This document shows, one piece after another, positions 13,011 to 13,439 of a DNA stretch of 15,572 nt (position 1 is the stretch's first letter; every line of letters begins with the position of its first letter). The position numbers and the translations under genes were made by a program. Origin of the DNA: an uncultured archaeon. GTDB lineage: Archaea > Thermoproteota > Nitrososphaeria_A > Caldarchaeales > Wolframiiraptoraceae. The stretch is from assembly GCA_937974645.1 (NCBI GenBank), contig CALJVH010000035.1, positions 1 to 15,572 on the forward strand, written 5' to 3'. Under the pieces are notes generated by a model that saw only the letters and a program-made list of their open reading frames with translations, was not told the DNA's origin and searched no databases.

Positions 13011-13110
13011 CGCCGCGACCGCCGCCGGAGCCCAGGCGGCGAGCCTGGCGAGCCAAGAGCCCGCATCAAGGCCCCTTCTCCTCCTCGAGGGGGCTTTAAG
13101 AGCAAACCTT

Positions 13111-13140
13111 ACAAATTCTTGTGAAAAATTGTGAAAAACT
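13111..13140 (+). repeat. Left arm of a ~30-bp imperfect inverted repeat (ACAAATTCTTGTGAAAAATTGTGAAAAACT), containing tandem TGTGAAAAA
   Basis: The reverse complement of 13400-13431 reads ATAAATTGTTGTGAAGTTTCTGTGAAAAACT, which aligns with this arm. Confidence 0.6.
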
Positions 13141-13188
13141 CGGAGATTTTTTTGACCTCTGGGAACCCGGGTTGGATCGGCCCGATAT

Positions 13189-13242
13189 GGGCGTAAAAAT
13201 TTTGATACGTTAATTGACGTGAAAATATTCGTCTATTGCTAG
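13189..13242 (+). repeat. Direct repeat copy A (~54 bp): GGGCGTAAAAATTTTGATACGTTAATTGACGTGAAAATATTCGTCTATTGCTAG
   Basis: It aligns with copy B at 13326-13380 and shares the blocks AAAATTTTGA.ACGT.AAT..ACG..AA...ATATTCG.CTA.TG.TAG. Confidence 0.65.
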
Positions 13243-13325
13243 TCAAAAATTCTCCCGGAAACTTATATACAAGTTGTTCAATCACAATTTAAACCCTCCA
13301 GAAAATATAAATAAAAGCATTTTAA

Positions 13326-13380
13326 GGGGGTGTCAAAATTTTGACACGTCAATCAACGAAACCATATTCGCCTAATGTAG
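13326..13380 (+). repeat. Direct repeat copy B (~55 bp), containing the perfect 16-bp palindrome TGTCAAAATTTTGACA (13331-13346)
   Basis: GGGGGTGTCAAAATTTTGACACGTCAATCAACGAAACCATATTCGCCTAATGTAG. The palindrome was checked by reverse complementing it. Confidence 0.65.
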
Positions 13381-13399
13381 AATGAGGATCACTTTCCAC

Positions 13400-13431
13400 A
13401 GTTTTTCACAGAAACTTCACAACAATTTATA
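13400..13431 (-). repeat. Right arm of the ~30-bp inverted repeat bounding the A+T-rich module
   Basis: The plus strand reads AGTTTTTCACAGAAACTTCACAACAATTTAT. It contains TTTTTCACA and CTTCACA, the reverse complements of the TGTGAA(A/G) half-sites in the left arm. Confidence 0.6.
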
Positions 13432-13439
13432 AGCCCTAC

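Follow-up and report, generated by a model that had tools for sequence, protein, structure and literature searches.

An A+T-rich module beside a pilin-like gene remnant in a Wolframiiraptoraceae archaeon as a probable relic of a DNA-transfer gene cluster

Why does a sharply A+T-rich island, framed by inverted repeats, lie between two G+C-rich blocks in the genome of an uncultured archaeon of the family Wolframiiraptoraceae from a hot environment? The window analysed here is a stretch of 15,572 nucleotides (contig CALJVH010000035.1 of assembly GCA_937974645.1), and the island, hereafter the module, lies near its far end. A first-pass annotation of the letters alone offered three ideas that it could not separate: a plasmid- or virus-type replication origin or iteron region, a divergent promoter and operator hub for the flanking units, or a miniature inverted-repeat transposable element (MITE). 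Comparison with homologous loci favours the hub, as each arm of the inverted repeat carries an outward TATA-like box and phased repeats, and the same layout occurs upstream of every homologue of the gene on the left. We consider it likely that the module is an orphan bidirectional promoter–operator hub and a relic of a DNA-transfer cluster that resembled a type IV secretion system, of either the Ced/Ted or the conjugative type.

All features that the first-pass annotation had read directly from the sequence were found where it had placed them, several with new dimensions. The island itself stands out as described, with 38% G+C in the module against 62–71% in the flanking blocks. The bounding inverted repeats had been put at about 30 bp each; the arms are in fact 56 and 58 nt long. 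In a gapped alignment with two indels, 13085–13140 pairs with the reverse complement of 13400–13457, and the match is perfect over the outermost 13 nt (TCGAGGGGGCTTT) and the innermost 11 nt (TGTGAAAAACT). The inverted repeat scores 22.5, compared with 8.7 ± 1.3 for 1,000 dinucleotide shuffles (z = 10.6), none of which scored as high. Two TGTGAA(A/G) sites had been counted on each side. The left arm does carry two TGTGAAA sites, 10 bp apart, and the right arm carries three (TGTGAAG, TGTGAAA and TGTGGAA) with a spacing of 10–11 bp. TGTGRAA occurs four times in the arms, and the fifth site is the TGTGAAG of the right arm. The two internal direct repeats, first given as about 55 bp long and about 137 bp apart, are refined to 50 nt with 76% identity, 139 bp apart (score, 20.0; z = 9.6; 0 of 1,000 shuffles as high). 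The palindrome reported in the second of them is perfect over 18 nt, and the coordinates of the TATA-like runs are correct. AA/TT dinucleotides recur with an 11-bp period over the whole module (0 of 500 shuffles). Such helical phasing of A and T was present in 5 of the 10 modules compared and not in the others, so it is not a trait of the module family.

The architecture recurs at 12 homologous loci from 10 lineages, in each case upstream of a gene for a small pilin-like protein of which the window retains a remnant. At every one of these loci, the unit that occupies positions −95 to −15 before the start codon has a second copy 110–490 bp upstream (z = 12–27); 11 loci have this copy in inverted orientation, and one has it as a direct repeat. 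In nine loci, a TATA-like box begins at −38 to −42 from the start codon; in the inverted arrangement, the TATA of the second copy faces away from the gene, toward the other operon. Each TATA is adjoined by two to four short repeated sites, the sequence of which depends on the lineage (GTTACGTAAC, TTGAACGAG, TGCAACG-N-CGTTGCA, TGGCCGACCA and GGAGCAAAA). These regions have a G+C content of 38–48% and an A+T-rich stretch of 200–450 bp, beyond which six loci continue into DNA of 58–70% G+C. Some lineages have two or three copies of the unit before different transcription units.

The module of the window shares both family traits. It lies directly upstream of a VirB2-like first gene, to which homology extends over 12744–13085, and its arms duplicate a unit of phased sites and outward TATA around an A+T-rich stretch. 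Its particular sequences also recur in intact form: the element L069 carries the TGTGAAAAA arrays of the window (z = 7.2) together with a GGGGTG-plus-palindrome element that matches direct repeat B (z = 5.7), and L061 has a related TATA-plus-palindrome pair (z = 4.7). TTGAACG boxes were found in the modules of L044, L071 and L074. Small open reading frames (ORFs) occur within the modules and within the G+C-rich leaders beyond them; they were rejected as genes, as they are not conserved and their frames shift between close relatives.

In the intact loci, which come from Caldarchaeum-type archaea, the pilin-like gene opens an operon. The second gene encodes a polytopic membrane protein of 281–284 amino acids that is VirB6/CedA-like; its nearest Atlas cluster is ‘CedA1 domain’ (0.92), with TrbL/VirB6 clusters at 0.71, a resemblance that is a lead rather than a proof. 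It is followed by genes for a protein of about 1,300 amino acids, a 936-amino-acid DUF87/AAA_10 ATPase that is VirB4-like and a 771-amino-acid DUF87/TrwB_AAD_bind/FtsK ATPase that is VirD4-like. On the divergent side are a G+C-rich stretch of 570–800 nt without ORFs, an 80–126-amino-acid membrane protein, a zinc-ribbon membrane protein and a DUF87/TrwB ATPase (HerA/VirB4-like).

This order, with a small VirB2-like two-helix protein, a VirB6-like membrane protein and VirB4-like ATPases nearby, is shared with the Ced loci of Sulfolobales, the Ted loci of Thermoproteales and archaeal integrated conjugative elements, as these are described in two reports (PMC9905601; PMC5797428). The likeness drawn here is one of gene order and context. 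A difference from Ced and Ted is that the elements studied here include a VirD4-like coupling ATPase, and this speaks for a conjugative element instead of a system for import only. The portions of the same two reports that were searched contain no mention of a promoter or inverted repeat of the kind found in the module (PMC9905601; PMC5797428).

Two further observations concern the surroundings of intact modules. A 191-amino-acid protein near the transfer cluster of G041 (L067:6181–6756) shows weak hints of a C2H2 zinc finger (E = 0.03–0.2) and is the sole DNA-binding lead found near a module. At L057:1067–2120, contigs of two DNA runs (X4 and X5) join 1067/1068 to 2120. They thus leave out some 1.05 kb that otherwise lies between the zinc-ribbon/ATPase side and the G+C-rich leader, and represent a form of the element with a deletion or a replacement.

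The window itself holds a relic, as the partner genes are absent and the pilin-like gene is patchily distributed. Genes for the VirB6-like, VirB4-like, VirD4-like and approximately 1,300-amino-acid proteins were found neither in the window nor in its genome (0.99 Mb, 82% complete), and the module has no intact divergent transfer operons on its two sides. The pilin-like gene was detected in none of 13 congeneric species and in 4 of 75 genomes from elsewhere in the class. In the window, the minus-strand ORF at 12732–13010 has 60–80% identity to proteins of 112–147 amino acids from metagenome-assembled genomes of Candidatus Caldarchaeum and other Nitrososphaerota. The tblastn homology runs in frame from 13085 to 12744, and 13085 is the exact end of the left arm. 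The homologous frame has no start codon before 13010. An ATG preceded by GGAGG lies at 13066–13064, one base out of that frame, which suggests the loss of a single G, an assembly error being the alternative. The remnant also lacks the C-terminal 20 or so amino acids and all of the downstream genes. Its homologues have, besides a leader helix, two hydrophobic helices with an invariant loop, KFLPxGSHRTKD, between them. In another genome of the family of the window, the pilin-like gene occurs without an upstream control module (L077; G075:C2:1–2735); the upstream DNA is unrelated, of ordinary composition and apparently coding, and the locus may be another rearranged copy.

The relic lies between dnaG and tRNA-Tyr. 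In three relatives, these two genes adjoin each other in divergent orientation, about 550–650 bp apart, as opposed to 2,150 bp in the window, and this larger gap places the module inside a strain-specific insertion of about 1.5–2 kb by the tRNA gene. The segment with tRNA-Tyr and its promoter is inverted in the window relative to the three relatives, and a 22-nt inverted repeat (13853–13874 and 14371–14392; 95% complementary) brackets tRNA-Tyr. A tRNA scan of the window returned nothing; ARAGORN misses the intron-bearing tRNA-Tyr. The region from 12.0 to 14.1 kb is the scar of a lost mobile element beside tRNA-Tyr. Coordinates of the module and its surroundings are collected in Table 1.

Table 1. 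Features of the module and of its surroundings in the window
Feature	Position	Strand or direction	Remarks
Left (gene-proximal) arm	13085–13140	read as a promoter unit facing the minus strand	L069 has homologous arms with these sites
Left-arm terminal 13-mer, TCGAGGGGGCTTT	13085–13097		
Left-arm TATA-like box, AATTTGTAAGG	13118–13108	minus	
Left-arm alternative TATA-like box, CTTAAAG	13100–13094	minus	
Left-arm TGTGAAAAA sites	13120–13128 and 13130–13138		10 bp apart
Right (distal) arm	13394–13457	read as a promoter unit facing the plus strand	includes the TGTGGAA site
Right-arm sites TGTGGAA, TGTGAAA and TGTGAAG	13394–13400, 13404–13410 and 13415–13421	minus	
Right-arm TATA box, TTTATAA	13426–13432	faces the plus strand	
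Right-arm terminal 13-mer, AAAGCCCCCTCGA	13445–13457		
Direct repeat A	13189–13238	plus	imperfect dyad GTAAAAATTTTGAT, then ACGTTAATTGACGTG
Direct repeat B	13328–13377	plus	holds the 18-nt palindrome GTGTCAAAATTTTGACAC, 13330–13347
Module centre	13239–13327		most A+T-rich 40 bp at 13286–13325, 20% G+C
Internal TATA-like runs, CTTATATAC and AAATATAAATAAAA	13262–13270 and 13303–13316		
AAATTCTCCCGGAAAC	13246–13261		by eye resembles the CCTAATTCCCGGAAATTT box of six other lineages; a regular-expression search of the window gave no match
First-gene remnant, putative VirB2/CedA1/TedC-like two-helix pilin	12732–13088	minus	protein homology
G+C-rich ORF-less stretch downstream of the distal promoter	13458–13852	plus	
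orc1/cdc6	4593–5885	minus	7 kb from the module, with its own origin

How might such a module work in an intact element? There the A+T-rich region separates two divergently transcribed operons, and we hypothesize that the arms serve as two copies of one promoter unit, each with two or three sites phased at 10–11 bp upstream of an outward TATA. Under the usual archaeal spacing between TATA box and start, which we used for the prediction, the repeat would end at about the transcription start, and that of the right arm would fall at about 13455–13457. The right-arm TTTATAA lies as far from 13457 as the TATA box of the tRNA-Tyr promoter in the window lies from its start. The earlier suggestion that this TTTATAA drives a plus-strand transcript fits the family pattern, in which the distal arm always has an outward TATA.

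The presence of two outward-facing copies of one unit suggests that a single DNA-binding protein controls both operons. This would be a sequence-specific protein encoded by the element, and it would bind the phased sites of both arms and probably the internal palindromes of the direct repeats as well. Both operons would then be switched together, perhaps by bridging of the arms over the bendable A+T-rich spacer. Sites directly upstream of a TATA would suit an activator, or an architectural protein that occupies a single face of the helix. The analysis establishes the anatomy of the module, the homology of the gene beside it, the conservation of the layout, the status as a relic and the rejection of oriC and MITE; that the arms act as promoters, bind a protein and co-regulate both operons is predicted. 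The source genome has lost the partner genes and has no regulator, and its copy of the first gene has no start codon in frame. The module there is thus probably inert; at most, it would provide two promoters that escape regulation.

Of the systems known in mechanistic detail, the nearest is the stbDR region of the bacterial plasmid R388, in which StbA binds 9-bp repeats, phased at 11 bp, around the promoter where two operons diverge (PMC3098194). Both systems place short repeats with a phasing of about 11 bp by a promoter, in a region of two diverging transfer-related operons. StbA is also a single element-encoded protein that couples the control of element functions, and a counterpart is proposed for the module. 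The differences are considerable: R388 is bacterial and uses σ70 promoters, its 9-bp repeats are direct and form two sets of five whereas each inverted arm here has two or three sites, no StbA homologue is known or was found here, and the R388 region also holds an origin of transfer (oriT), to which we return below.

A MITE, or another non-autonomous transposon inserted into G+C-rich DNA, would account for terminal inverted repeats with a perfect 13-nt tip and for the abrupt compositional contrast to the flanks. We give this idea practically no credence, and it is rejected for the source genome. The module is present there as a single copy, and genome-wide motif counts placed each of its motifs (the 13-mer tip, the palindrome and the repeat core) at this locus only, which leaves neither a repeat family nor a regulon. 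No match to the module was found when the DNA of 40 relatives, 13 congeneric species among them, was searched. Pattern scans of viral contigs returned 13 matches, none longer than the 19–21-nt pattern and all in low-G+C phage contigs; we regard them as chance matches for these two reasons. A protein-guided scan of the viral contigs and a PHROGs search with the local ORFs returned nothing, and Rfam, at gathering and E-value thresholds, gave nothing relevant for the window and three related loci. No target-site duplication surrounds the module, where the flanks read ...CTCCTCC and AACATTA..., and on the left the module adjoins homologous coding DNA, which extends the locus just as in the intact elements.

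The idea of an origin fared somewhat differently, as descent from a mobile element is upheld and origin function is not. An origin of chromosomal replication, or an origin acquired from an extrachromosomal element, would explain the A+T-rich core between inverted repeats, which resembles the layout of an archaeal oriC, and TTTCCACAG at 13392 is like half of a mini-origin recognition box (mini-ORB). However, all five ORB-like matches of the window cluster at 6009–6452, directly upstream of orc1/cdc6, and one of them matches TTTCCAGTGGAAA perfectly, with GGGG after it. The interval 5900–6500 is a textbook archaeal oriC, with five ORB/mini-ORB boxes in the lowest-G+C stretch of the window. The module, 7 kb away, contains no ORB or mini-ORB boxes (of the TTCCAGTGGAAA type with a G-string), does not adjoin an orc1/cdc6 or whiP initiator gene and is absent from relatives. 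Nor does it have three or more regularly spaced iterons beside a rep gene, as an iteron origin would; there are two 50-nt repeats, and no rep gene was found in the window or beside the homologous modules. A chromosomal or acquired origin here is, in our judgement, very improbable.

Comparison of close relatives shows that the interior of the module changes much faster than its flanks. Between L057 (2580–2824) and L056, the distal flanks share 94% identity and those on the gene side 86.5%, and the 244-bp interior has no detectable similarity; the same interval, compared with L056 and L052, marks the module interior as a hypervariable cassette. The unequal identities of the flanks suggest a recombination junction at the module, and a variable interior is as expected of a control cassette that would determine specificity. 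Within one lineage, an interior of about 230 bp is reversed in L059 (2604–2857) relative to L057 (2597–2857), and likewise relative to L047, L050 and L060. The interior is 89–90% identical when reversed and 73% identical when read directly, the flanks are collinear (91–97%), and the crossover falls inside the arm core GGTGCAACGATG / CATCGTTGCACC. Together, the divergence between L057 and L056 and the inversion in L059 define the module as a hypervariable, recombinogenic cassette.

Inversion of this kind recalls the fimS and hin switches of bacteria, which are invertible promoter switches of fimbrial and flagellar genes. As in those systems, a segment of a few hundred base pairs lies between inverted repeats directly upstream of a pilus-subunit gene, and it is inverted in one related element. 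If the arms were recombination sites, flipping of the interior would turn its internal promoters toward one operon or the other and so produce phase variation of the pilus; the interiors do hold TATA-like boxes beside one arm, and the flanks of the inverted interior in L059 are collinear. The prospects of this explanation are nevertheless poor. A single inversion was seen, between samples and not within one population, and contigs of four runs (one RNA and three DNA) on L057 contained no strand-changing joints, although contigs drop minor variants. Beside the modules no recombinase gene was seen, in contrast to fimS and hin, and the main TATA boxes lie in the part of the arms outside the crossover core and hence do not move. 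Homologous recombination between inverted repeats of 40–60 nt suffices for a rare inversion.

A further element of the modules bears on whether they process DNA as well as, or instead of, controlling transcription. The box CCTAATTCCCGGAAATTT is conserved in six lineages with differing arm sites. In its full form, CCTAATTC(C/G)C(C/G)(G/A)AAATTT, it occurs in L044, L045, L068, L069, L071 and L074, always on the strand of the pilin-like gene and 138–185 nt ahead of the start of that gene; additional copies lie farther upstream. In many cases the box has an inverted repeat of its own on its two sides (ATCGGTCAG / CTGACCGA) or precedes GGGGTG and a TTGAC...GTCAA palindrome. The retention of this box despite the differing arm sites would be consistent with a cis-acting DNA-processing site, such that the module is, or also is, oriT-like or a replication origin of the element. 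The inverted and internal repeats would in that case bind processing or initiator proteins, instead of or in addition to transcription factors.

The composition and location of the module also agree with an oriT, as it is A+T-rich, dense in repeats and phased at 11 bp in A and T, it lies between divergent transfer operons and it marks the recombination junction between the unequal flanks of L057 and L056. The oriT of RP4 is likewise situated between divergent transfer operons. So is that of R388 (PMC3098194), and the position of the module matches both. Several observations point the other way. Relaxase, rep and initiator genes were not found next to any module, and archaeal conjugative elements have no recognisable relaxase, according to one report (PMC9905601). 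Four lineages lack the conserved box, and in the window it can be recognised only faintly. The TATA boxes stand at a fixed distance from the start codon. The two or three copies of the unit that some lineages have before different transcription units fit promoters better than a unique origin. We therefore regard processing of DNA at the module, and the binding of processing or initiator proteins to its repeats, as possible but unlikely.

The two preceding lines of thought can be combined. The family may consist of fast-evolving, occasionally flipping specificity cassettes joined to a cis site for the initiation of transfer, an equivalent of oriT for relaxase-less archaeal systems; the CCTAATTCCCGGAAATTT box or the GGGGTG-palindrome would then be the processing site, and the arm sites would set the specificity of the element. 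We offer both parts of this proposal as speculation that is rather improbable. No archaeal oriT was found in the literature searched.

On its distal side, the promoter–operator hub that we favour would face a long leader. Intact elements have, at the position of the G+C-rich stretch of the window, a G+C-rich leader of 570–800 nt without ORFs before the small membrane-protein gene (L047:3121–3700, L045:2885–3705 and L048:3700–4467). The leaders contain a conserved AAACCCTATAAGG, are more than 90% conserved in the L047/L052 group and are poorly conserved between lineages. They may be long leaders of the transcript or non-coding RNAs. RNAalifold predicted a stable fold with one compensatory pair only, as the sequences are too similar to provide more, and poor conservation between lineages leaves no case for a structured RNA.

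Several points weigh against a promoter–operator hub derived from a transfer cluster. The left-arm TATA (TTTGTAAG) matches the consensus poorly. No RNA sequencing run was found to contain the window, and contigs of one metatranscriptome aligned to the related element L057 are compatible with use of the promoters and equally with its absence. No regulator candidate was identified in the elements examined; among the neighbouring small proteins, Pfam detected nothing beyond faint signs of zinc fingers or zinc ribbons. The assignment of the first gene as a pilin is putative, based on context and a sub-threshold TrbC/VirB2 Pfam match among its homologues (E = 0.07). A sequence search of the PDB, and a Foldseek search with an AlphaFold model of the pilin-like protein (predicted local distance difference test score, 62), returned generic helical hairpins only. 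Comparison of the leaders with the window by nhmmer gave a best E value of 0.005, by which homology of 13458–13850 is not established. Finally, a genome completeness of 82% leaves it possible that partner genes reside elsewhere, although the operon is nevertheless truncated on the contig.

Neither replication origin nor MITE is an appropriate annotation for the module. No description of how archaeal conjugation-like or DNA-import clusters of the Ced/Ted type are switched on outside Sulfolobales was found in the literature searched, and the module family offers cis elements on which the control of transfer can be tested: promoter units in two copies, phased sites particular to each lineage, and palindromes and a box that are conserved. 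A hypervariable cassette within conserved flanks suggests a determinant of specificity or immunity. The copy in the source genome is the scar of a lost element; it is the family to which it belongs that merits study.

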